Positions 1-14,300 of a DNA stretch of 14,300 nt are shown piece by piece. Source of the DNA: a virus (Duplodnaviria > Heunggongvirae > Uroviricota > Caudoviricetes); the IMG/VR virus record IMGVR_UViG_2671180490_000011, positions 1-14,300 of that record, one strand, 5' to 3'. Under the pieces are notes generated by a model. The model ran no database searches and was not told where the DNA came from. It saw nothing but the letters and a program-made list of their open reading frames with translations. Position numbers and translations under genes: made by a program. The number at the start of each line of letters is the position of its first letter. Within the stretch, counting starts at the first letter, position 1.

Positions 1-1020
1 GGGAAAAATATCATCAGATGGCTGCTTAAAAAAAGAACAAATGGTAGTGTCCGCTATTGCCAGTACACCTCATAATGCCTGGCATAGCAAGCCCTTTTCT
101 TGTGTTGTCAAGACATTTGGCAACGTTCAAACATCTGTTTAGAAATGCCAAATTGTTGATCTAACAAATAAACCTGTATAAACAGAACACCATTTAATCT
201 ATTCCCCTGTGTAACCCACCACATCACACAATAAAAACAAAAAACTTTAATTATATTTCATAGCACACAAAAGTCAATAGAAGCCCTTTCGTGCTCCTAC
301 GTAAAAAATCCATCACTTTTCCACTGATACATCAATTCAAGGCGTTATATGTGTTCCTTAGCACATATAACATTTATTATGTTAAATGGATTTTGGCCTA
401 TATTTTGACCTGCACCCGCATAAACACTGGTTTCATCGCTTACAGCCCTTGTGAGACGTGGTGCTGTTTCTAGCATCTGATCCGACATAAAACCGATCAT
501 TCTCGTGTTTAGTGAAAGTTTAGTGAGAGACATTACAGAAAGGCTTTCTGTGTAATGATTTAATAGGTAAAAACGATGTTGATTACGCAAGAAAATTCCT
601 TGCTGATATTTGGGGATTCTGGATTTTCCAGATCGGGGGGCGCTGAAAATCGCGTTAAGCACCTCTCGCAATCTAGCCATAAGGGAAGGGATATAGGTAT
701 TAAGATGTATTTATAGCTATTTATGGCTATTTATTTTTTATTTACCTTTACTTAAAAATAACCTTATAAATCAATAAGATACATAATTATCTGTTTATAT
801 TTTAATCAATTAAATCAAGTTTAATACCCTTAAATCACCTGAAAATAGCCTTAAATACCCCAATAATTAATTTTAAGGTTTTCCGTGTTCTCTTCCGCAT
901 TATGAAAATGCAAAATAAGGCACAAAACAAGCGCACAGACGCATTAAACACACATCACCTATCCCTATACCGAGTAATGAAAACAGCGTTAGAATGCGTC
1001 CTGTTGCGTTCTGGAGATTT

Positions 1021-1179
1021 TCAGAAATCCTCTCTAAGCCATTTCAACTCACTAAGGAGTTTTCTTTCTTCGTTCTCTCTCTGTTTACGCTCTAGCCAGG
1101 CTTTTCCTTCTGGCGTAGACAGGAACTTACGAGCGTGAATCTTGCGGTTATTACGTTTGATTGCTGCAATGTTTTTCAT
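1021..1179 (-). CDS. hypothetical small basic protein (52 aa); below the length cut-off of the supplied ORF track
   Basis: Hand translation of the reverse complement: ATG at 1179..1177, TGA stop at 1023..1021, product MKNIAAIKRNNRKIHARKFLSTPEGKAWLERKQRENEERKLLSELKWLREDF. AGAGG lies 6 nt upstream of the ATG. No family recognised. Overlaps antisense to the weaker + ORF 902..1138, which lacks an RBS. Confidence 0.3.
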   Translation of the reverse strand: MKNIAAIKRNNRKIHARKFLSTPEGKAWLERKQRENEERKLLSELKWLREDF

Positions 1180-1784
1180 CGTGTGCCTCTGTATTCATAT
1201 GAAAATTAACAAGTTACATACTACACAGGGAGACTACGCATAAAACACAATACAAGTAAAGATACATTTTCAAGACAATAGGAGCCATAAAGCGCCTTTG
1301 ATGGTTATACCAAAAAATAAGCGCCGTAGGCGTATCCACTAAAAAGGGCTTTTTCACAAAAGCTATGAAGTCTTAGCAGTTCTTCTCTTATCAGGCACCC
1401 GTTGTACTCCGGTGGACGAAACCGTGCTAGAGCTTGATTCTTTCCCGATCAAGTTAGGTTTTGAAGAGGTGGGCTTTAATCCACTATTGCACTTAAAACT
1501 CTTCCCATCATTTAGCCTGTTTATCCTCTGCAACGTCTCACGACGTGTAGCATCATTGGACACCGCGCCAGGTGTGGAACATCTTGCTAAGAGTTTTGGT
1601 AGAAGGTTTAGAGACGGTGGCACGTCTTCCAGCTTCAAAGGAACTTGTTACGAGGTTGAGCCTGGGAACTACTCGCCCATACGTGTTACACTACCAAAGC
1701 CCATAACAACGTATAGGCGTTTGTAAGTGATAACAGAAGATACAATTTCTTAGAGAAGTTAAGCTAAGTTATTAATTTTCTTAA

Positions 1785-1830
1785 TGGTGCCGATAATAGG
1801 AGTCGAACCTACGACCTTCGCATTACGAAT
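1785..1830 (-). other. partial tRNA-Thr(CGU) gene (thrW-like), 3' 46 nt only; putative prophage attachment-site core (attR-type repeat)
   Basis: Reverse complement reads ATTCGTAATGCGAAGGTCGTAGGTTCGACTCCTATTATCGGCACCA: anticodon loop TTCGTAA (anticodon CGT), variable loop, T-stem/loop GTAGG-TTCGACT-CCTAT, 3' acceptor strand TATCGGC, discriminator A and CCA. The 5' acceptor strand, D-arm and 5' anticodon stem are absent; identity breaks at tRNA position about 31. Match to thrW is from memory of the E. coli sequence. Orientation places the integrated element on the high-coordinate side, consistent with the tail-fibre genes. Confidence 0.55.
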
Positions 1831-2343
1831 TATAAGAATCCGCTTCTAATTCAAAGCATTACCCCATCAACACTGCGCTCACACGTCCCACCACATCAAA
1901 ACATGTAAAGCCTTGCAAGTCATTGCGAGGCCTTATGTGTCTCAGTTTTGTCCCACCTTGTATTACGACTTGCATAGCCAATGAAGATAAATGTGACAAC
2001 AAACGGCGCAGCAGTCTTCTTTTCCTTCATACTTTCCCCACCCAGCATGCATACCTTCTACCATAACTGTAGTGAATGTCTGTTATGAGCGAGGAACGGA
2101 CGTTGCCACGGAACGGACCTAACCATTAACGAGCATCCACCAGCAAGCTATGAGGAAATTATGCAAAGCTAGCATGCCAGGGCCTATACCCAAAAACGGC
2201 CTCGGAATTTTTGATAACAGTTCGAAGTCTAATAATAAAAAAGGGAATCTCTCGGATCTGAAGGTCCCCCTTTAAGCGAGAAAAGGACATTTAATTTTCA
2301 AGTCGTGGAAATCGAAGGCAGTACCTGCCGGAGCCATTGCATC

Positions 2344-2368
2344 GAAGCCTGGATAATATCCAGGCTTC
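2344..2368 (-). terminator. perfect 11-bp stem / 3-nt loop hairpin 34 nt downstream of the oxidoreductase stop; possible terminator or RNA-stability element
   Basis: gaagcctggat-aat-atccaggcttc is a perfect inverted repeat; a second small hairpin ggcag-tac-ctgcc lies at 2318-2330. No U-tract follows on the - strand, so intrinsic-terminator function is uncertain. Confidence 0.3.
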
Positions 2369-2401
2369 ACCAGGCTCATTTATAAAATGCTGTGGTAAGG
2401 A

Positions 2402-3394
2402 TTACTCAACGGTCACGACTATTTTGCCTACCTGGCCATTGGCCTCCATATAGCGCTGGGCGTCTGCAATCTCTTCGAACGGGAACGTTTTATCGATGAC
2501 CGGTTTCAGTTTGCCAGCTCGTAAGCCTTCTGTGATGAAGGATTTTGCGCGCGCCATTTTTTCAGAGTCAGTCGTGATTTCAAACAGCTCATATCCACGC
2601 AGAGTGAGATGCTTACCGAGAATATTAAATACAGGCACAAGCATGTCACGGCTATCGAGCGCGCCATACTGGAAAAACATGCCCTGTGGTGCCATCACCT
2701 GCGTCAGTTTTGCCACGTCCGGCCCGCCGACGGGATCAAAAACAATATGGGCACCTACGCCATCTGTTGTTCGATTGATTTCAGCAACCATATCCAGCTC
2801 TGCAGTAGCAATGACGGCAGCTGCGCCAGCTTTCAGTAGCATTTCACTTTTTTCAGAGGTCCGAGTGAGTGCAATTGGGTTTGCACCCAGCATGTTAGCT
2901 ATCTGTATGGCAGCCAGACCTACGCTGCTTGATGCTGCGCGGATCACAACATTCTGACCAGCCTGAAGATTGCCATATTCAACCAGCGCACCATAAGCGG
3001 TGACATACATCATCCAGCTTGCAGCGGCTTCCTCAAAAGAAAGGTTTTCAGGATGCTTCACGATAGCATGCACAGGTGCATTGACCACTTCACCGTACAT
3101 ACCGTATTCATTAAACATAAATGAAGGGATAACGCTGACCAGATCTCCAATGGTAAACTCATCAACATTCTCACCTACGGCCTGCACAACGCCAGCCGCT
3201 TCATAACCAAGACGTGCCGGAAATTCCGGCTCAATAACATACTGGCCGTTGCGGTACATGATTTCTGCACGGTTGATACCTATCGCATGTACGCGGATCT
3301 GCACTTCACCCGCTGTCGGCGCAGGCACCTGTACATCAACAAATTCCAGCACTTCCGGGCCTCCGGTACGGTTAAAGGTAATAACTTTAGACAT
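2402..3394 (-). CDS. NAD(P)H:quinone oxidoreductase-like protein, medium-chain dehydrogenase/reductase (zinc-type alcohol dehydrogenase) superfamily
   Basis: 330-aa ORF, ATG at 3394 with GAGAG-type SD 6-7 nt upstream, TAA stop at 2404..2402. N-terminal motif GEVQIRVHAIGINRAEIMYRNGQY matches the QOR/zeta-crystallin signature; central glycine-rich nucleotide-binding stretch VVIRAASSSVGLAAIQIANMLGA. Family is firm; substrate is unknown. Confidence 0.85.
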   Translation of the reverse strand: MSKVITFNRTGGPEVLEFVDVQVPAPTAGEVQIRVHAIGINRAEIMYRNGQYVIEPEFPARLGYEAAGVVQAVGENVDEFTIGDLVSVIPSFMFNEYGMYGEVVNAPVHAIVKHPENLSFEEAAASWMMYVTAYGALVEYGNLQAGQNVVIRAASSSVGLAAIQIANMLGANPIALTRTSEKSEMLLKAGAAAVIATAELDMVAEINRTTDGVGAHIVFDPVGGPDVAKLTQVMAPQGMFFQYGALDSRDMLVPVFNILGKHLTLRGYELFEITTDSEKMARAKSFITEGLRAGKLKPVIDKTFPFEEIADAQRYMEANGQVGKIVVTVE

Positions 3395-3543
3395 ATTCAG
3401 CTCTCTTCAGTTAAAGGCACTCCTTCAGAATAATGCCGAAGGGATGCCCGAATCATTTGTGAACAATCTACGTTGTTACAAACACACCAGAAATAGCTGA
3501 GAGGGAACTTCAGTATTAATTATCCATTAACAATCCGCCTGCT

Positions 3544-4446
3544 TCAGCGGATCTGCGTGGCCAGAACATCACTGAACCAGTCGATAAAGACGCGCACTTT
3601 TGGAGAAAGGTAGCGCCTGTCGGGATACATCACTGACACGGGCTTTGACACCGATGGGTATTGCGGCAGAATCTCTTCAAGAGCGCCGGAAGCAATATGG
3701 GGAGCAACGGCATCATAGGTAGCTTGGATAATGCCCAGACCAGCCAGAGCACAGGAAAGCAGAATATCGGAATTATCAACCAGCAGGCTGCCCGCAGGAC
3801 GTAGTGAAACAATGCTCCCGTTTTCGATAAACTTCCATTCCATGACGTCACGACTGTGGTCGCTAAAAAAGTTAATTGCCCGATGTTTATCCAGATCCGC
3901 AAGTGTTTCTGGCCGCTCATGCTGCTGCAGGTAAGACGGGGCTGCACAGGTAACCATCCGGATGTCACCAAGACGTCTGGATATAAAACTAGAATCCTGA
4001 AGCGCACCCAGGCGGATAAGGCAATCTACGCCTTCCGTGATCAAATCAGTTTTTTTATCCGAAGAAACCAGCACAACTTCAATACCTGGATACAGTGTCT
4101 GAAAATGCCTAAGATTAGGGATCAATATGGAATGCGCCAGCGCCAGGGGCACATCAAGTCTCAGGCGTCCTCGCGGTGGAAGAGTCGGTGAAAAACTGGC
4201 CATCATGTCATTAACTTCGGCCAGGACATGCCTGGCATGATGATAGAACTCATCCCCTTCAGCAGTAACGCTCAGCTTTCGGGTTGTGCGATAAATGAGT
4301 TTTACACCCAGATCATGCTCTATCTGCTGTATTGCTTTGCTCACGGTGGGGCGATGGATCTGAAGTACATCAGCAGCTTTAGTGAAGCTACCCTGCTCAA
4401 CAACCTGTATGAAAATATTTAGGTATTCAATCATGTTGGCATGCAC
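3544..4446 (-). CDS. LysR-family transcriptional regulator
   Basis: 300-aa ORF with N-terminal helix-turn-helix (YLNIFIQVVEQGSFTKAADVLQIHRPTVSKAIQQIEHDLGVKL) and a C-terminal co-inducer-binding-type domain of typical LysR length. GTG at 4446 has AGGTGA 5 nt upstream; alternative ATG at 4434 (MIEYLN...). TGA stop at 3546..3544. Lies 149 bp upstream of, and co-oriented with, the oxidoreductase gene. Confidence 0.85.
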   Translation of the reverse strand: MHANMIEYLNIFIQVVEQGSFTKAADVLQIHRPTVSKAIQQIEHDLGVKLIYRTTRKLSVTAEGDEFYHHARHVLAEVNDMMASFSPTLPPRGRLRLDVPLALAHSILIPNLRHFQTLYPGIEVVLVSSDKKTDLITEGVDCLIRLGALQDSSFISRRLGDIRMVTCAAPSYLQQHERPETLADLDKHRAINFFSDHSRDVMEWKFIENGSIVSLRPAGSLLVDNSDILLSCALAGLGIIQATYDAVAPHIASGALEEILPQYPSVSKPVSVMYPDRRYLSPKVRVFIDWFSDVLATQIR

Positions 4447-4819
4447 GTGATCACCTGTTTTGTAGGCTGTTTAAAACTGACATTGTAAAGTAAACCATCC
4501 CAACGACATTATTTTTTTCGTTCAGATAAGGGCTTGTCCGCTTCTGGCACATAGCAGACCAGAGACACTGGCGTAAAGCCATGGAGGATCGGTGGGAGGA
4601 GGTAAAAATCCTCTCATGCAAAAAATACGCAAAATCGATAACAGTTGGAAATCATTCAATACTCGCACTATCGGAAGTTCACCAGCCAGTCGTAGCACGT
4701 TCTTGCATACGACGTGGCTACGGGTTTCGAGACCGGTCCAATCATCAAACGAAACATAAAATTAATTCACATTATGAGGAAAAGTATCTTTTTTGTACTA
4801 TGTAAATTCAAAGGCTTAG

Positions 4820-5689
<870 letters not shown>

Positions 5690-5708
5690 GTCTTTAAGTG
5701 ATAAGCAT

Positions 5709-5757
5709 AAACCGCAGCACGTCATGCATACGTCGTGTCTGCGGTTTTTCTTTTTTG
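5709..5757 (+). terminator. rho-independent terminator between convergent genes (GIY-YIG gene and tfa); may act bidirectionally
   Basis: Stem aaaccgcag (5709-5717) pairs with ctgcggttt (5739-5747), followed by TTTTTCTTTTTT to about 5756 on the + strand. On the - strand the downstream tract is less U-rich. Confidence 0.6.
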
Positions 5758-5758
5758 C

Positions 5759-6343
5759 TTACACGGTGTCTGGTTCTTCTGGCCACTCAATATCAGGTGC
5801 AGTTGATGTATCAACACGGTTCAGCAACACCCGATACTTCTTCCAGGCTTCCAGCAACGAGGTTTCTTCCTCCGTTGCAATTTCCAGATCTGCAGCATCC
5901 TGAAGCGGCGCAATATGCTCACTGGCTACCTGCATCAGGTTGTTTTTTGTTTCTTCCGCCTCCCGGATCCGGAACAGTTTTTCTGCTTCCGTATCCTTCA
6001 CCCAGGCTGTGCCGTTCCACTTCTGAAACTCCCCTTCCGGCGATAACCAGGTAACATTTTCCGGTAACGGACCGAGTTCAGAAATAAATAACGCGTCGCC
6101 GGAAGCCACGTCATAAACCGTTTTACCCCGATGATCTTCAACGAGATGCCACGATGACTCATCACTGTTGAAAACAGCCACGAAGCCAGCCGGAATATCT
6201 GGCGGTGCAATATCGGTACTGTTTGCTGGCAGACCTGTATGAGGCGGAATATATGCATCACCTTCACCAATAAATTCATTAGTTCCGGCCAGCAGATTAT
6301 AAATTTTTATGGTCCGTGGTTGTTCACTCATTCTGAATGCCAT
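5759..6343 (-). CDS. tfa: tail fibre assembly protein (phage lambda Tfa homologue)
   Basis: 194-aa product [48 protein letters not shown]... is near-identical along its length to lambda Tfa as I remember it. The ATG overlaps the stop of the upstream stf (TAATG), the classic stf-tfa coupling. Confidence 0.9.
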
Positions 6344-8505
6344 TATGCAAGCCTCACAATATAGTTAAATGCGATGTTTTTGACGGTGTTTTCCGCGTTA
6401 CCAGCAGCGTTAACGGTGATGGTGTGTCCATGTGAACCAATCGCAACGGAGTGCGTATGAGCACCAATACCGACAGTATGTGCATGTGCGCCTGCGCTTG
6501 CAGCTGTGCCGGACAGCGAGTGGGTATGAGCACCATCTGATGATGTCTTCCCTGCATTACGAGTCTGGCCACTACCGCTTGTTGTGCTCATAATCCCCGC
6601 GCTTAGATTTGAAATCGCGGTATAACCATTAGGGAAAATGCTCGTGTTCGTGCCACCAAATGCACCGGAACTCTTGTGTTGGTGCGCACCGGCACTATTT
6701 GCGGTCCCGCTAATACTATGGGTATGCGCCCCGGTGTTATTCGTGGATTTGGTTCCGTAATCAAACGACGATGTGGTTTTCGTCCCCAAATCCGTACTGG
6801 ATGCGCTGGCGCTGTGGGTGTGCGATTTAATGCCGTCCTGTTCCTGAGATAATACGGCCCGACCACTGGCGGGCTTGCCCTTAATCGTCCAGCCACGCAT
6901 ATCAGGGATCACGCCTGACGGATAAGCGGCTGCAAGTTTCGGGTAAGCAGATTTGTCAAAAGTCTGCCCCTGCATCAGGGCATAACCAGACGGAACGGTA
7001 TCTGATGGCCACGGGATTGGTGCGCCGACTGGGTAGCTTTCTGGTGGAAGATTTTTCGAGGTATAAACTTCTGCCCAGTCTTCCTCAAAACCATAACCGT
7101 CTCTTGAAGAACGGTAGAACAGACCACCATTTCTGTAATGCGCCTTCATCTGCAATGTCCGGCAACTTCCGACTCCGGTATAGAAGTTAACCAGAATATA
7201 GCTGTTGCCAGAGCGGGTGACATTGTAAGCGCCTGATTCGGCATTCCAGGGAACGCCACCATCCGCATCGGCATATGTATCCGTTGCCCTTCTGGCAAAA
7301 GCAGCCACATGCGCGGCGGTTAAAGTAATATCTTTGGAACCATCAAACTCAACACCAGAAACCAGTCTTGGCGTTTGCAGCTTTGTTGCTGTTAATGCAT
7401 TACCGTTCAGACTTGCGGACAGTTTGGTTCCAATAACCAGTTCGCCGGTTGCGTTATCAATAGCAAACGGTCTTAATGTATTCCAGCCACCATAAACATC
7501 ACCTTGATTGGTAAGCAGCAGGTAAGTTTTAGCGCCATCATTACGCCATAATGCCCCATACTCCCCACCTATCATTCGAATCTGATTACCACCACGCGCT
7601 ACAATTTCGTCTGTGGCAAAAAGTTTTTTGCACGACAAGTTATCGTTAACGATTAACGAATGAGACTCATAAAAACCACGCCCACTCTTAAAATCAAGGA
7701 TAACGTCCGCCGCGATACATTCAGTCGCCGGATTTGTTGCCCCAAACTTATAGGTCGTATCATTAACAACGAGATCAGCACCAGGTGCGGATATTGACAG
7801 GCCATCTTCGATAAACGCAAAAACAGGGAAAGCAGCGCCATCAACATAGAACACAGAGCGCAAATCATCGCCCTTATTACTCATCATTATTGAGTGGATG
7901 GCTCGTTCATTGTTTTGATATTGCCAGAACATTCCATAAGCATAACGCCCCCTGTCAGTCCAGCCACCAGGCATAACAAATCCGTTAAACTCGCAGTTAT
8001 TCATCGGATCGCCTGCGGTTCGCGTTGCCGTGGTGATAATGACCCTTGATGCCAGTTCGCTTACTGAGCCAGCAGAACGCATAACAACAACAGGGTAATA
8101 TTTTCCAGATGTTGCACCTGCAGGAGCGTTAACCCGCACATAACGCATACCACGCTTATCAGCAAAGTCTGTTTTACTGACCGCGTTAATGTTGTTCAGG
8201 AAGCGTCCCTTATCGGGTATATCAGCGCCGTTCTGGTCTTTCTGCAGACGTTTCTCTGCATTGTCATAGGCTGATTTTACTGCCTTTGGCGTTGCCGCCT
8301 GTGACTCGGAAGTGCTGTTGGTCGCACTGCTGAGCTGTACTATCCCCTTTTTCGTCGTGCTCGCATCCTCAAGCGCCACGGCGGATGCAATATCCTCTGC
8401 CCGTTTTGCCGCTGTCTCAGCGCGCGTTGCTGCAGATTCCGCCGTACTTTTGCTCTGTGCTGCCGCCGTCGCACTGCCAGCTGCCTCTGTCGCCTTCGTG
8501 GATGC
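6343..8505 (-). CDS. stf: side tail fibre protein, 5'-truncated copy (C-terminal about 720 aa) with its own central domain; 5' end lost at the N/junction at 8506
   Basis: Translation contains the lambda Stf motif [24 protein letters not shown], a central domain (about residues 100-510 of the track ORF) different from that of the 8553-12128 copy, and a shared C-terminal His-rich region ([55 protein letters not shown]). The track ORF 6343..8553 is an artefactual fusion: its first 15 codons are a tfa 5' fragment joined through the N at 8506. Confidence 0.6.
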
Positions 8506-8506
8506 N
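8506..8506. other. single N at a sequence junction (stf internal repeat region joined to a tfa 5' fragment)
   Basis: Literal n in the sequence; sequence identity to the 6296-6343 tfa/stf junction starts immediately after it. Confidence 0.9.
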
Positions 8507-8553
8507 TTATAAATTTTTATGGTCCGTGCTTGTTCACTCATTCTGAATGCCAT
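8507..8553 (-). other. duplicated 5' fragment of tfa (first 15 codons), truncated at the N
   Basis: 8507-8590 is a near-copy of 6296-6380 with 2 substitutions (one changes Tfa Pro9 to Ala). The encoded [15 protein letters not shown] stops at the N at 8506. Confidence 0.6.
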
Positions 8554-11500
8554 TATGCGAGCCTCACAATATAGTTAAATGCGATGTTTTTGACGGTGTT
8601 TTCCGCGTTACCAGCAGCGTTAACGGTGATGGTGTGTCCATGTGAACCAATCGCAACAGAGTGCGTATGAGCACCAATACCGACAGTATGCGCGTGTGCA
8701 CCCGCAGATGCTGCTGTGCCGGACAGTGAGTGTGTATGGTTTCCTTCTGAAGATGATTTACCTACCCATTGGGAGGTGCCACTGGTTAATGAGCCACTGA
8801 TACCAACCTGATTAGTCCCGCTAACTTGAGTACTCCCTGCCGGAAACATTCCAGTAGGTTGACTCCCGCTATTCGTTCTGGGCCCAGTCTGACTATGTTG
8901 GTGGGCCCCAGCTGAACTTGTAGAGCCGCTCAGACTGTGCGTATGCGCCCCGGTGTTATTCGTGGATTTAGTGCCGTAATCAAACGACGATGTGGTTTTC
9001 GTCCCCAAATCCGTACTGGATGCGCTGGCGCTGTGGGTGTGCGATTTAATGCCATCCTGTTCCTGAGACAATACGGCACGACCACTGGCGGGCTTGCCCT
9101 TAATCGTCCAGCCACGCATATCAGGGATCACGCCTGACGGATAAGCGGCTGCAAGTTTCGGGTAAGCAGATTTGTCAAAAGTCTGCCCCTGCATCAGGGC
9201 ATAACCAGACGGAACGGTATCTGATGGCCACGGGATTGGTGCACCGACTGGATAAAACTCTGCAGGAGGATGAGCCGAGGTGTAAAGCTGCGCCCACGGC
9301 GACCAGTTTGCGTCGGTCGTATCCCGTCGTGAACGAATAAATGCCGGAGCATGAGCACCGCTTGTACCACTCCAGCCGATGAGTAACTCACCTTCGCCAA
9401 CGGCTGTCATCCCTTTCAGGTGAATGATATTTCCATACGCTGTTGGATATCCGTTGTTATACACCTCGTATAACTCAAGACCTGCTGCCCCCTGCGTATT
9501 GTCTGTCAGCGCGGCTACCCGACCTTTTGAAGCCAGATTAACTGATGATACTGCTGTTCCACCTGACGGTAGCGCCCCGATCTCTGATGCCGTTGGCTTA
9601 TTTCTGGAGTTATAGTCCCTTCGCCAGCCAGGTGAATAATCTGTTCCGTGATTAATATAGGTAAACTGGGCGTTGGTTGTTCCGCCACCGCTGGATGTGG
9701 TCGGAGTGGTAATGCGGATCGTCATCGCTGACTTTATCCCCATTACTTCAATGACAGCTCCGGCGAGATGAATATTACCGCAGCCAGTATCAGTAATGAT
9801 TTTATTATTGCCATAAGACCAGGAACCCTTGCACATCCAGTATGGATGGTTAAATGCTCCCTGAGAATCCAGCCACTCGATAAACTGTGCAGTCGTCCAG
9901 TTTCCTGTTGTTGTGCTTACTGACCCACCGAAGGCACGGCAGGCACCAATATTTTTCGTAAAGGTGTCTTTGCCAGGGATATCCGCACCGTTCTGATCTT
10001 TCTGCAGACGTTTCTCAGCATTGTCATTGGCTGCTTTTACTGCCTTTGGCGTTGCCGCCAGCGTTTCAGACGTGCTGTTGGTCGCGCTGCTTAGCTGGAT
10101 TATCCCTTTCTGTGCTGTCGTTGCATCCTGTGCGGTGTATTTCCCGTTAGCCAGGTCATACGCGGCCTTAACGGCTTTTGGTGTTGCCGCCAGTGACTCG
10201 GAAGTGCTGTTAGTCGCACTACTGAGCTGTACTATCCCCTTTTTCGTCGTGCTCGCATCCTCAAGCGCCACGGCGGATGCAATATCCTCTGCCCGTTTTG
10301 CCGCTGTCTCGGCGCGCGTTGCCGCGGATTCCGCCGTACTTTTGCTCTGTGCTGCCGCCGTCGCACTGCCAGCTGCCTCTGTCGCCTTCGTGGATGCTGT
10401 CGTGGCGCTGCCCTTCGCTGCGGACGCTTGTCTGGTCGCCTCATCTTTTGAAGCAGACGCCGATGATGCCGATGACGCCGCCGAACTGGCGGACGATGCG
10501 GCAGCCGTTTTTGAGGATTCTGCACGGGTTTCCGACGCTTTCGCGTTCGTTTCGGATGTCTTCGCTGCGGAAGCTGACCTCGCTGCTGCCGTGGCCTGCT
10601 CAGTGGCTTCGCCAGCCTTCGTTGTGGCTGTTGAAGCGGATGATGCGGCGCTTTCTGCCGATTTTCCGGCGGCGGTGGCACTGGCTGAGGCCTGCCCGGC
10701 ACTTGTTGACGCGGCGCTGGCAGACGACGCAGCCGCTGTTTTTGAGCCTGCCGCAGCTGAGGCACTCTGTCCCGCTGCCGTTTCAGAAGACCTGGCGTTC
10801 GTCTCGGACGTTTTGGCCGCCTTCGCAGAATTTGCAGCCGNNNNNNNNNNNGTCGCACTGCCAGCTGCCTCTGTCGCCTTCGTGGATGCTGTCGTGGCGC
10901 TGCCCTTCGCTGCGGACGCTTGTCTGGTCGCCTCATCTTTTGAAGCAGACGCCGATGATGCCGATGACGCCGCCGAACTGGCGGACGATGCGGCAGCCGT
11001 TTTTGAGGATTCTGCGCTGGTTTCCGACGCTTTCGCGTTCGTCTCGGATGTCTTCGCTGCGGAAGCAGACCTCGCTGCTGCGCTGGCCTGTACAGCGGCT
11101 TCGCCAGCCTTCGTTGTGGCTGTTGAAGCGGACGATGCAGCACTTTCTGCCGATTTTCCGGCGGCGGTGGCACTGGCTGAGGCCTGCCCGGCACTTGTTG
11201 ACGCGGCACTGGCAGACGACGCAGCCGCTGTTTTTGAGCCTGCCGCAGCCGAGGCGCTCTGTCCCGCTGCCGTTTCAGAAGACCTGGCGTTCGTCTCGGA
11301 CGTTTTGGCCGCCTTCGCAGAATTTGCAGCCGCCGTCGCCGAGGAAGCTGCGCTACTGGCGCTTGATGATGCGTTCGTTTCTGATGATTTTGCCGCCTCT
11401 TTTGAAGCCGACGCATCCCGGGCTGAGGTGGCAGCTTCTGACGCTTTCGTGGTCGCGGTGGATGCAGAAGTGGCTGCTGATTGTTGTGACGCTGCCGCAT

Positions 11501-12128
11501 TCGTTTCTAACGTTTTCGCCGCACCGGCACTGGTAGCCGCCGCGCTTTTTGAGGACTCTGCAGCGGCAGCACTTTTTGAGGCTTCAGTGGCCTTTGTTGA
11601 TGCCGTTCCTGCGCTGGAAGACGCTGACTGAGCCGACGAAGCGGCCTGTCCGGCTGACGTGCTGGCTGCACGTGCTGAATCTGCAGCATCAGTCGCATGG
11701 GTTGCCGCCTCACGGGCTGATGTGCTGGCATCGCTGGCTGATTTCTTCGCGGCTGCCGTGTTCTGTGCCACCGCGGACGCGTTACGCGCCACCTCTTCCA
11801 CCATCAGCTCAAAACGGCGCAGTGCCTCCGGACGGGCATCATCCTCCGTCATGGCACCGAGAAAATCATTCAGCGTACCGGGTCGGGAATCTTCATACAC
11901 GGTGATGGTCCCGGCATGTGACGGCGGGAATCCTTCCACCAACAGAATAACGCTGTACTGACCGTACTCAACGTCCATGCTGTAACGCCCGGCTTCATCC
12001 GGATTTTCTGAGGCCAGCGTGTTCACCACCACCGTGGTGCTGTTACGTTTTGCTTTCAGCTGGATTGTGCAGTTCTGTACCGGTTTTCCTGTGCCGTCTT
12101 TCAGTACACCTGAAATCTTTACTGCCAT
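8553..12128 (-). CDS. stf: side tail fibre protein (phage lambda Stf homologue), interrupted by an 11-N gap at 10841-10851
   Basis: N-terminus [37 protein letters not shown]... is near-identical to lambda Stf. Followed by a long Ala/Ser/Thr-rich low-complexity region, the [24 protein letters not shown] motif (twice), a central domain, and the His-rich C-terminus ending [11 protein letters not shown]. Likely start is the ATG at 12128 (GGGGTGA SD 5 nt upstream); the track begins at an in-frame GTG at 12134. TAA stop at 8555..8553 overlaps the tfa-fragment ATG. Confidence 0.75.
10360..11332. repeat. two ~481-bp direct repeat units inside the stf Ala/Ser-rich region (10360-10840 and 10852-11332), separated exactly by the 11-N gap
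   Basis: Both units begin gtcgcactgccagctgcctctgtcgccttcgtggatgct and end tttgcagccg. Protein segments [18 protein letters not shown]...[10 protein letters not shown] are repeated with a few substitutions (AAVQASAA vs ATEQATAA; SETSAES vs SETRAES). Confidence 0.7.
10841..10851. other. assembly gap (11 N) within stf
   Basis: Literal run of n. Confidence 0.95.
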
Positions 12129-12139
12129 ATTCACCCCAC

Positions 12140-12165
12140 AAAAAAGCCCGCCTGAACCGGCGGGC
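12140..12165 (-). terminator. intrinsic terminator immediately upstream of the stf start (terminates the upstream tail gene); identical copies at 13197-13222 and 14267-14292
   Basis: On the - strand: GCCCGCC-GGTTCA-GGCGGGC followed by TTTTTT, then the GGGGTGA SD and the stf ATG. Confidence 0.5.
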
Positions 12166-12198
12166 TGTCATAACACTGTGTTACCTGGCTAATCAGAA

Positions 12199-12199
12199 N
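12199..12199. other. single N at a junction between stf upstream region and an internal stf position
   Basis: Literal n; flanks are ...ttacctggctaatcagaa | n | ctttctgccgattttccgg..., the latter being the internal stf sequence also found at 11143. Confidence 0.9.
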
Positions 12200-13185
12200 C
12201 TTTCTGCCGATTTTCCGGCGGCGGTGGCACTGGCTGAGGCCTGCCCGGCACTTGTTGACGCGGCACTGGCAGACGACGCAGCCGCTGTTTTTGAGCCTGC
12301 CGCAGCCGAGGCGCTCTGTCCCGCTGCCGTTTCAGAAGACCTGGCGTTCGTCTCTGACGTTTTTGCCGCCTTCGCGGAATTTCCTGCCGCTGTTGCCGAG
12401 GAAGCTGCGCTACTGGCGCTCGAGGATGCGTTCGTTTCTGATGATTTCGCTGCCTCTTTTGAGGCCGCCGCATCCCGGGCTGAGGTGGCAGCTTCTGACG
12501 CCTTCGTGGTCGCGGCGGATGCAGAAGTGGCTGCTGATTGTTGTGACGCTGCCGCATTCGTTTCTGACGTTTTCGCCGCAGCGGCACTGGTAGCTGCCGC
12601 GCTTTTTGAGGACTCTGCAGCAGCAGCACTTTTCGATGCTTCACTGGCCTTTGTTGATGCCGTTCCTGCGCTGGAAGATGCTGACTGAGCCGACGACGCG
12701 GCCTGTCCGGCTGACGTGCTGGCTGCGCGTGCTGAGCCTGCAGCATCAGTCGCATGGGTTGCCGCCTCACGTGCTGATGTGCCGGCATCGCTGGCTGACT
12801 TCTTCGCGGCTGCCGTGTTCTGTGCCACCGCGGACGCGTTACGCGCCACCTCTTCCACCATCAGTTCAAAACGGCGCAGTGCCTCAGGACGGGCATCATC
12901 CTCCGTCATGGCACCGAGAAAATCATTCAGCGTACCGGGTCGGGAATCTTCATACACGGTGATGGTCCCGGCATGTGACGGCGGGAATCCTTCCACCAAC
13001 AGAATAACGCTGTACTGACCGTACTCAACGTCCATGCTGTAACGCCCGGCTTCATCCGGATTTTCTGAGGCCAGCGTGTTCACCACCACCGTGGTGCTGT
13101 TACGTTTTGCTTTCAGCTGGATTGTGCAGTTCTGTACCGGTTTTCCTGTGCCGTCTTTCAGTACACCTGAAATCTTTACTGCCAT
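12200..13185 (-). CDS. stf: stf 5' fragment, copy B (N-terminal about 330 aa of side tail fibre protein, truncated at N 12199); distinct allele
   Basis: Same N-terminus as the 8553-12128 stf but with about 8 amino-acid substitutions (DASTSA to DAGTSA, DAADSA to DAAGSA, TKATEA to [15 protein letters not shown] to SAAAAKTSE and others). ATG at 13185, with SD and terminator upstream. Confidence 0.45.
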
Positions 13186-13255
13186 ATTCACCCCACAAAA
13201 AAGCCCGCCTGAACCGGCGGGCTGTCATAACACTGTGTTACCTGGCTAATCAGAA

Positions 13256-13266
13256 NNNNNNNNNNN
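13256..13266. other. assembly gap (11 N)
   Basis: Literal run of n. Confidence 0.95.
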
Positions 13267-14255
13267 GCGCTTTCTGCCGATTTTCCGGCGGCGGTGGCAC
13301 TGGCTGAGGCCTGCCCGGCACTTGTTGACGCGGCGCTGGCAGACGACGCAGCCGCTGTTTTTGAGCCTGCCGCAGCTGAGGCACTCTGTCCCGCTGCCGT
13401 TTCAGAAGACCTGGCGTTCGTCTCGGACGTTTTGGCCGCCTTCGCAGAATTTGCAGCCGCCGTCGCCGAGGAAGCTGCGCTACTGGCGCTTGATGATGCG
13501 TTCGTTTCTGATGATTTTGCCGCCTCTTTTGAAGCCGACGCATCCCGGGCTGAGGTGGCAGCTTCTGACGCTTTCGTGGTCGCGGTGGATGCAGAAGTGG
13601 CTGCTGATTGTTGTGACGCTGCCGCATTCGTTTCTAACGTTTTCGCCGCACCGGCACTGGTAGCCGCCGCGCTTTTTGAGGACTCTGCAGCGGCAGCACT
13701 TTTTGAGGCTTCAGTGGCCTTTGTTGATGCCGTTCCTGCGCTGGAAGACGCTGACTGAGCCGACGAAGCGGCCTGTCCGGCTGACGTGCTGGCTGCACGT
13801 GCTGAATCTGCAGCATCAGTCGCATGGGTTGCCGCCTCACGGGCTGATGTGCTGGCATCGCTGGCTGATTTCTTCGCGGCTGCCGTGTTCTGTGCCACCG
13901 CGGACGCGTTACGCGCCACCTCTTCCACCATCAGTTCAAAACGGCGCAGTGCCTCAGGACGGGCATCATCCTCCGTCATGGCACCGAGAAAATCATTCAG
14001 CGTACCGGGTCGGGAATCTTCATACACGGTGATGGTCCCGGCATGTGACGGCGGGAATCCTTCCACCAACAGAATAACGCTGTACTGACCGTACTCAACG
14101 TCCATGCTGTAACGCCCGGCTTCATCCGGATTTTCTGAGGCCAGCGTGTTCACCACCACCGTGGTGCTGTTACGTTTTGCTTTCAGCTGGATTGTGCAGT
14201 TCTGTACCGGTTTTCCTGTGCCGTCTTTCAGTACACCTGAAATCTTTACTGCCAT
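13267..14255 (-). CDS. stf: stf 5' fragment, copy C (N-terminal about 330 aa), truncated at N gap; protein-identical to the 5' end of the 8553-12128 stf
   Basis: Translation matches copy A over the region shown. ATG at 14255, upstream terminator at 14267-14292; the window ends shortly after. Confidence 0.45.
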
Positions 14256-14300
14256 ATTCACCCCACAAAAAAGCCCGCCTGAACCGGCGGGCTGTCATAA

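Follow-up and report, generated by a model that had tools for sequence, protein, structure and literature searches.

The region 8506-14300 of the analysed stretch of DNA (the window, 14,300 bp in length) is almost certainly an assembly artefact, in which paralogous prophage copies were falsely duplicated into a chain that corresponds to no native locus. The window contains 24 N in four runs and nowhere else, one N each at 8506 and 12199 and 11 N each at 10841-10851 and 13256-13266, which divide it into five blocks termed X, Y, Z, W and V. The blocks, the genes assigned to them and the four joins are as follows.

1-8505, block X: N-free chromosomal flank and prophage end
2402-3394, minus strand, block X: Zn-ADH (Pfam)
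3544-4434, minus strand, block X: LysR regulator (Pfam)
4916-5689, plus strand, block X: LEM-3-like GIY-YIG gene (Pfam)
5759-6343, minus strand, block X: tfa (Pfam)
6343-8505, minus strand, block X: stf allele A, 3′ two thirds, of Gp34_trimer plus Collar type (Pfam)
8506, join 1: one N; stf interior (equivalent to window 10397) against codon 15 of a second tfa allele
8507-10840, minus strand, block Y: codons 1-15 of a tfaQ-like gene (8507-8553) and part of stf allele B
8553-10840, minus strand, block Y: stf allele B, 3′ three quarters, of Phage_fiber_2 plus Collar type
10841-10851, join 2: 11 N; one allelic copy of a native 481-bp stf segment against the other
10852-12198, minus strand, block Z: stf 5′ end of allele A, with ATG at 12128-12126, SD, lom terminator at 12145-12166 and the last 6 nt of lom
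12199, join 3: one N; lom 3′ end against stf interior (equivalent to window 11143)
12200-13255, minus strand, block W: third stf 5′ allele, with ATG at 13185-13183, terminator at 13202-13223 and the last 6 nt of lom
13256-13266, join 4: 11 N; lom 3′ end against stf interior (equivalent to window 11140)
13267-14300, minus strand, block V: stf 5′ end continuing block Y, with ATG at 14255-14253 and terminator at 14272-14293; ends with the public record
Flank pairs on either side of joins: ...GGCTAATCAGAA / CTTTCTGCCG... and ...CGTGGATGC / TTATAAATTT...

Mapping on the native locus L013 (CP182142) revealed that window 4705-8505 is colinear up to locus position 6301, and that the locus coordinate steps back at every N run, where window positions 8507, 10852, 12200 and 13267 correspond to locus positions 4093, 6264, 6555 and 6552, respectively. 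By the same mapping, no break in colinearity without an N was found in the stf region. The N runs are thus the points at which the sequence jumps between stf and tfa positions, as the preliminary description had proposed: four runs coincide with four breaks against native lom-stf-tfa loci, and a match of this kind between four randomly placed N runs and four given break points within 14.3 kb has a probability of ~6e-16. Moreover, all four runs part segments that copy the same native stf/tfa positions, which is the arrangement of gap-separated copies known from false duplications. Block ends also adjoin sites that are polymorphic between copies, in two of the five cases testable inside the window and in five of eight once native proxies are counted. 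Against a background of 3.5% polymorphic columns, the probability is 0.011 for at least two of five and ~5e-5 for at least four of seven block ends.

To the left of the joins, block X 1781-7035 is colinear with CP136025 at 99.75% identity. No public sequence is closer to the left flank than L006, which matches 1784-6469 at 100% identity (4.7 kb). Most of stf is deleted in L006 at this locus, and a lineage-specific structure is therefore not to be assumed. A tRNA scan of the window found none, and the sole match of an Rfam scan was IS009.

The joins differ in what they bring together. At join 1, the minus strand reads tfa′ codons 1-15, the N and then the stf interior, exactly as first described; the native context of block Y in CP148382 is the Qin-like ydfK-pin-tfaQ-stf-lom-J region. 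Join 2 had been taken for a step from one repeat unit to the next, which does not hold, as 10360-10840 and 10852-11332 are allelic copies of one segment (Y/Z overlap of 481 bp at 96.9% identity). This 481-bp segment is present once in native genomes, the flanks of join 2 are the two ends of that span, and the join makes an artificial 492-bp in-frame tandem; a 492-bp periodicity intrinsic to stf is ruled out because the natives hold the segment only once. Joins 3 and 4 share the left flank, whereas the right flank of join 4 is shifted by 3 nt. Both had been described as leading from the stf upstream region back into the stf interior. The interior side of that description stands, but Z and W also include the final 6 nt of the lom 3′ end (TTC TGA). 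At the site of join 3, native loci continue from ...AATCAGAA with C or T and then read TTATAACC of lom.

The right part of the window carries three direct copies of a unit made up of terminator, SD, ATG and ~1 kb of stf 5′ end (terminators at 12145-12166, 13202-13223 and 14272-14293). They had been described as three head-to-tail copies of the stf 5′ ~1 kb without a 3′ end, which is true of the repeated starts but not of Z, as Z gains a 3′ end via Y; the two together form a 1193-codon ORF in which 164 codons are spuriously duplicated. W differs from both Z and V at exactly 8 of 328 residues, the number estimated earlier for the middle copy, whereas Z and V are identical in protein and differ at 6 of 1034 nt. 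With mismatches at 15 of 481 nt between Y and Z and at 32 of 1056 nt between W and Z, the copies are heterotypic, not identical. The claim that at least two stf alleles are chained is right in that there are several: at nucleotide level the 5′ end is present as three alleles (Z, W and V), and the receptor-binding 3′ part comes in two different forms (X and Y). Over its full length, W has 99.6% identity to complete genomes (CP023359), as against 97% to Z and V, and in those genomes the W-like sequence starts a normal stf in the arrangement J-lom-stf-tfaQ. In fact, for each stf 5′ copy, alleles found in other genomes are closer than the copies beside it. That genomes hold several such copies is confirmed by the copy number of the 1-kb stf 5′ segment in complete E. 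coli genomes (median 2, maximum 14).

Re-threading of the blocks restores ordinary genes. The last 38 bp of X are exactly the first 38 bp of Z, and the last 193 bp of Y are exactly the first 193 bp of V. Joined accordingly, X+Z and Y+V each give an intact stf (1133 and 1027 aa, respectively) that is colinear with complete E. coli genomes. X+Z aligns in one piece to CP182142 over 100% of 5.1 kb, and its 1133-aa Stf shares 98.3% identity with the 1133-aa StfR of that genome without gaps; Y+V covers 99% of native stf-tfaQ loci. Pfam assigns PF08400, PF21446 and PF07484 to X+Z, PF08400, PF03406 and PF07484 to Y+V, and PF02413 to Tfa. The native loci carry the same domain sets, and X+Z, Y+V and Tfa are lambdoid Stf and Tfa proteins. 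None of the six re-threaded full-length Stf (XZ, YV, YZ, XZW, YW and XYV) occurs residue for residue in a collection of 15 billion proteins, and the exact phasing (X to Z versus X to Z/W, and so on) is thus one that we infer.

Comparison with finished genomes points the same way. In a set of 5,426 complete E. coli genomes, which comprises neither the same isolate nor S. sonnei, the flanks of joins 1, 2 and 3 do not adjoin each other in any genome. In these better assemblies, which represent other isolates of the same species complex, the junctions are absent and the re-threaded genes colinear. All ten native loci with an identical Tfa have one stf or a remnant of it, and never tandem stf 5′ ends. 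Neither the junction sequence written with its N nor an 81-mer of block X has an exact match in genome, viral and metagenome contig collections. By exact protein look-up, the W ORF, the 1191-aa ORF and the V ORF are not on record, and a 736-aa Tfa′-Stf fusion is on record solely on this one contig.

The origin of the sequence accounts for the N runs. The window is the reverse complement of the entire public record CXFP01000130.1 (14,300 bp; GCA_001257715.1, labelled Shigella sonnei, run ERR042793), from isolate ERS025894 of study ERP000568. The supplement of Page et al. 2016 (PMC5320598) lists the source assembly as a product of the Sanger pipeline, in which Velvet is followed by SSPACE and GapFiller; by this listing and the pipeline description, the record comes from a scaffolder that writes N at read-pair joins. 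In that pipeline, N gaps mark read-pair joins, and the greedy SSPACE and GapFiller steps “can lead to false joins” (PMC5320598). GapFiller grows the gap edges by one nucleotide per step and halts at ambiguous overhangs, and gaps that stay open lie mainly in repeats (PMC3446322). Altogether, the joins absent from genomes, the blocks that re-thread, the closer foreign alleles and a pipeline with known false joins indirectly bear out the earlier suspicion of a chimeric or scaffolded assembly.

We propose that the isolate carries at least three lambdoid prophage lom-stf-tfa loci, whose stf 5′ ends would be 97-99.4% identical and share exact stretches of hundreds of bases. Velvet may have failed to resolve these stf copies, and SSPACE may then have linked the contigs by ambiguous read pairs, so that allelic or paralogous pieces ended up consecutive instead of superimposed. 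Judging from the published descriptions, GapFiller would have extended the edges base by base until the copies diverged, leaving the edges unmerged with 1 or 11 N between them. The likely true loci would be (i) on the left, GIY-YIG, tfa, stf allele A (X followed by Z or a Z/W-type end) and lom; (ii) in another prophage, Qin-like in reference genomes, a tfaQ-like gene, stf allele B (Y followed by V) and lom; and (iii) a third stf with block W as its 5′ end and its 3′ part presumably elsewhere in the assembly.

Could the array be real? Unequal recombination between prophages might have placed stf 5′ modules head to tail, with the Ns being low-quality bases. Tail-fibre genes are indeed recombination-prone and mosaic, block X itself is a mosaic of different natives, and the ORFs are open and in frame over joins 1 and 2. 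However, frame would be kept at two joins by chance in ~1 in 9 cases, the four N runs coincide with all four breaks, and an N stands for a read-pair join in the Sanger pipeline. A genuine tandem duplication has identical novel junctions and copies that are each other's closest relatives; here the right flanks of joins 3 and 4 are offset by 3 nt and their N runs differ in length, which does not fit a junction propagated by duplication, and the copies are not mutually closest. With copies that lack a 3′ end and tested joins absent from every complete E. coli genome searched, such an array is extremely improbable. The functional version of it, a genuine array of promoterless or terminator-flanked stf N-terminal modules beside two complete receptor-binding ends in which the Ns are incidental, has a vanishingly small probability; if true, the array might be a reservoir for recombinational swapping of tail-fibre shafts. 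It is also highly unlikely that the alleles X/Y and Z/W/V stem from at least two co-sequenced strains and were then chained by the scaffolder. Allele differences of 0.6-3% could reflect strain variants, but a single complete E. coli genome typically holds 2 and up to 14 copies of the 1-kb stf segment, so one genome suffices for the chained alleles. Moreover, the set of 9,404 assemblies that contains the source record had already left out samples flagged by Kraken as contaminated or with more than one MLST allele (PMC5320598). X and Y also differ in their receptor-binding domains and native chromosomal contexts, which likewise argues against strain variants.

Known systems for diversifying tail fibers were considered as well. 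Invertible cassettes (Mu Gin, P1 Cin and e14 Pin) and shufflons have inverted crossover repeats around alternative 3′ segments and an adjacent serine or tyrosine recombinase. The window has no inverted repeat of ≥30 nt in 5500-14300, its repeated parts are direct 5′ ends, and no recombinase ORF was seen in 4700-14300. A diversity-generating retroelement combines template and variable repeats that differ at adenines only with a reverse transcriptase gene, whereas the mismatches between the copies here are of all base types and no ORF of the window was identified as a reverse transcriptase.

The assembly artefact has practical consequences. There is no biological novelty in the stf/tfa chain, and it has no biological importance, because the underlying genes are ordinary lambdoid stf and tfa. 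It is instead a clean, documented case of short-read scaffolding and gap filling that pile paralogous prophage genes into a false tandem. The gene models that follow from the record, namely the Tfa′-Stf fusion, the Stf ORF running from Z into Y and truncated Stf fragments, are spurious and can inflate gene-family counts, pangenomes and surveys of tail-fibre diversity. In early 2016, 18,080 of the 59,536 bacterial GenBank assemblies came from the same pipeline (PMC5320598); N in stf/tfa of such records should therefore be read as join marks, not as sequence.

In gene content, the window resembles lambda Stf/Tfa and the StfR/TfaR (Rac) and StfQ/TfaQ (Qin) pairs of E. coli K-12; its underlying genes are ordinary members, with the PF08400 N-terminal domain, Collar and a Caudo_TAP assembly protein directly downstream. 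Native lambdoid loci have lom and J upstream of stf, and none has several stf 5′ ends in a row, whereas the window genes are cut and chained. With the false joins made by SSPACE and GapFiller in the Sanger pipeline, the window shares N gaps and repeats with ambiguous extension (PMC5320598 and PMC3446322); those papers contain neither this locus nor such stacking of prophage tail-fibre paralogues, and the literature on prophage tail-fibre misassembly in E. coli yielded nothing specific. In vertebrate assemblies, a hallmark of false duplications is a gap that separates the two members of a duplicated pair within a single scaffold (Ko et al. 2022, Genome Biol 23:205, PMC9516828). Unlike the diploid haplotypes of that case, the window copies are paralogues from the prophages of a haploid bacterium, and the likeness rests on sequence. 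Nevertheless, the window shares with the vertebrate heterotype false duplications diverged copies in tandem, a gap between them, false gene gains and chimeric or fragmented gene models (PMC9516828).

The window contains 24 Ns in four runs and none besides, according to a scan of its full length. These runs, numbered as joins 1 to 4, separate five N-free blocks.

Blocks and joins of the window (all stf and tfa genes on the - strand)
1-8505: block X, window start to join 1
8506: join 1, single N
8507-10840: block Y, between joins 1 and 2
10841-10851: join 2, 11 N
10852-12198: block Z, between joins 2 and 3
12199: join 3, single N
12200-13255: block W, between joins 3 and 4
13256-13266: join 4, 11 N
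13267-14300: block V, join 4 to window end

Window 4705-8505 is colinear with the native locus of the complete genome CP182142 (GIY-YIG, tfa, stfR, lom, J), and the coordinate on that locus falls back at every N (8507 to 4093, 10852 to 6264, 12200 to 6555 and 13267 to 6552). The chance that four random N runs would hit four fixed break points is about 6e-16. Thus the Ns sit at sequence jumps in the stf region, as the preliminary description had stated; its jump from tfa codon 15 into the stf interior is likewise seen at 8506, where a 736-aa chimeric ORF crosses the N and reads Tfa codons 1-15, an X and then Stf.

Comparison of the window with itself revealed that block ends overlap: the final 38 bp of X are the initial 38 bp of Z, and the final 193 bp of Y are the initial 193 bp of V. 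The final 481 bp of Y and the initial 481 bp of Z are the same native segment at 96.9% identity, so the apparent 492-bp tandem at 10841-10851 consists of two alleles set end to end around 11 N. This rules out an intrinsic repeat and corrects the earlier view of a join from repeat unit to repeat unit; the flanks of join 2 bound one 481-bp span in thousands of complete genomes. At their right ends, Z and W both read ...GGCTAATCAGAA, which is 6 nt into lom from its 3' side (TTC TGA), and past this point all native loci continue as C/T-TTATAACC.

Joining X and Z via their overlap restored a 3402-bp ORF of 1133 aa with PF08400, Gp34_trimer and Collar domains. The 5.1-kb construct aligned to CP182142 in a single piece (100% of length, 98.0% identity), and its protein matched StfR without gaps over 1133/1133 residues at 98.3% identity. 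Similarly, Y and V yielded 1027 aa with PF08400, Phage_fiber_2 and Collar domains; coverage of native stf-tfaQ loci was 99%, with a 44-residue repeat-number indel against the best match. Native stf alleles vary by one such Phage_fiber_2 unit (1027 versus 983 aa), which is natural repeat-number variation unconnected to the N joins. Block Y also carries internal 132-bp direct repeats (9948-10261, 61-79% identity) coding for Phage_fiber_2 repeats (...ATPKAVK). The native context of Y+V in CP148382 is a Qin-like region (ydfK-pin-tfaQ-stf-lom-J), a chromosomal place different from the pao/ADH/LysR neighbourhood of block X. At each of ten native loci encoding the identical Tfa, stf is either present once, at 899-1132 aa, or degraded; none has a second stf 5' end. 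The phasing, both as to X to Z or X to Z/W and as to the place of the 3' partner of W, is unproven, because exact protein look-up of the six possible re-threaded Stf proteins returned no match on record.

Three identical intrinsic terminators, each followed by the SD and ATG of the stf N-terminal domain (Pfam PF08400), mark the three 5' starts noted previously.

Intrinsic terminators of the stf 5' copies
12145-12166: terminator
13202-13223: terminator
14272-14293: terminator

Between Z and V there are 6 nucleotide differences and no residue change, whereas W differs from both at exactly 8 of 328 residues, in agreement with the approximate count first given. Block W is 99.6% identical over its full length to complete genomes, in which it begins a normal 3.3-kb stf, but its identity to Z and V is just 97%. 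The three 5' copies thus represent distinct alleles in circulation rather than in-situ duplicates. The 1-kb 5' segment occupies a median of 2 and a maximum of 14 places per complete genome, as anticipated for several stf copies, so one genome can supply all alleles. Exact stretches common to stf 5' ends reach 369-552 bp.

Searching 5,426 complete E. coli genomes, which represent the species and not the isolate, with queries of 200 bp that had join 1, 2 or 3 at the centre found adjacent flanks in none (0/5,426); the few places of full coverage were two pieces across 470-760 bp. Join 4 shares its left flank with join 3, with the right flank offset by 3 nt. Exactly one contig on record, CXFP01000130.1 of GCA_001257715.1 (14,300 bp), encodes the 736-aa Tfa'-Stf fusion. 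Reverse-complemented, this contig matches the window exactly, with the record ending inside block V, and hence the Ns belong to the public record. Its gene calls (L015, the source record; window 6343-14255) include five stf-derived products of 355, 188, 426, 761 and 736 aa, and the 188-aa call appears to use a frame other than stf.

Where contigs are expected to abut or overlap yet fail to merge, SSPACE and GapFiller insert one N. Polymorphic bases adjoin the block ends: window copies carry A or G just beyond the left ends of W and V, native lom alleles carry C or T just past the right ends of Z and W, and tfa alleles carry A or G just past the left end of Y. Against 3.5% polymorphic columns in the background, this holds for 2/5 ends testable within the window (P = 0.011), and for at least 4/7 with native proxies added (P about 5e-5), which fits GapFiller stopping at ambiguous overhangs. 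GapFiller extends both gap edges in steps of one nucleotide, applies a 0.7 majority rule to ambiguous overhangs, closes a gap only when extensions overlap and the size fits, and leaves gaps open mainly in repeats (PMC3446322). Page et al. 2016 list ERP000568/ERS025894/ERR042793/CXFP01000001-CXFP01000378/lane 6350_1#19/Shigella sonnei in their supplement as a Sanger pipeline assembly, made by Velvet with VelvetOptimiser, then SSPACE, then GapFiller with 120 iterations (PMC5320598). By the same paper, N gaps in this pipeline mark joins made from read pairs, and its greedy steps 'can lead to false joins'.

Among public sequences, the left flank is closest to L006 (GCA_030346745.1, JAUANR010000001.1, 9875-14560), which matches window 1784-6469 at 100% identity over 4,686 bp. 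Of its stf, just the final ~126 bp remain beside tfa; after them come a small ORF, the Rz, lysozyme and holin genes, and IS1. The prophage there is degraded, and close relatives therefore vary in how much stf this locus contains; homology of block Y 8507-8679 to L006 ends at the same point as its stf remnant. Homology to ADH/LysR island genomes (L001, L006) sets in abruptly at window 1781-1784, which may be a mosaic island boundary. Window 1-1780 has no ORF above 111 aa, and similar DNA elsewhere among complete genomes carries no annotation beyond hypothetical protein and in some cases adjoins tRNA-Thr or IS600. An Rfam IS009 match (RF02111; 5802-6000, - strand; 225.9 bits, gathering score 117) lies wholly inside the tfa coding sequence, an overlap of an RNA family model with a protein-coding region. 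Opposite the Ala/Ser-rich stf shaft, long antisense ORFs (window 10402-11631, + strand, equal to L015 2670-3899, 409 aa; 7424-8161 of the native locus L002, 245 aa) are called as genes in public assemblies, have no Pfam match and probably arise as artefacts of base composition, the coding strand being GC-rich and repetitive.

The stf chain almost certainly arose by scaffolding and gap filling of prophage paralogues. Several lambdoid prophages of one genome would share stf 5' ends over exact stretches presumably longer than the reads, so that contigs broke there; ambiguous read pairs would then connect allelic pieces, the scaffolder would set them in series, and gap filling would push them into each other's territory without merging. 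Block parts beside the Ns may be majority-vote mosaics of paralogues. A real tandem array of stf 5' modules is extremely improbable, given that the block ends overlap, join 2 unites two alleles of one segment, X+Z and Y+V re-thread into genes colinear with native loci, the 5' copies are separate alleles, joins 1-3 are absent from the complete genomes, and the Ns belong to a pipeline prone to false joins. The same overlaps, colinear genes, absent joins and provenance support the chimeric or scaffolded assembly proposed at the outset. Alleles from mixed strains in the sample are very unlikely, as one genome suffices and the dataset holding the source record was filtered against such samples (PMC5320598). 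Invertible cassettes, shufflons and DGRs were rejected, their defining features being absent.

As a biological feature the stf chain is not real; it is of value solely as a documented hazard for annotation and databases. It would be the bacterial-paralogue counterpart of the false heterotype duplications, with a gap between the copies, of vertebrate assemblies (PMC9516828).
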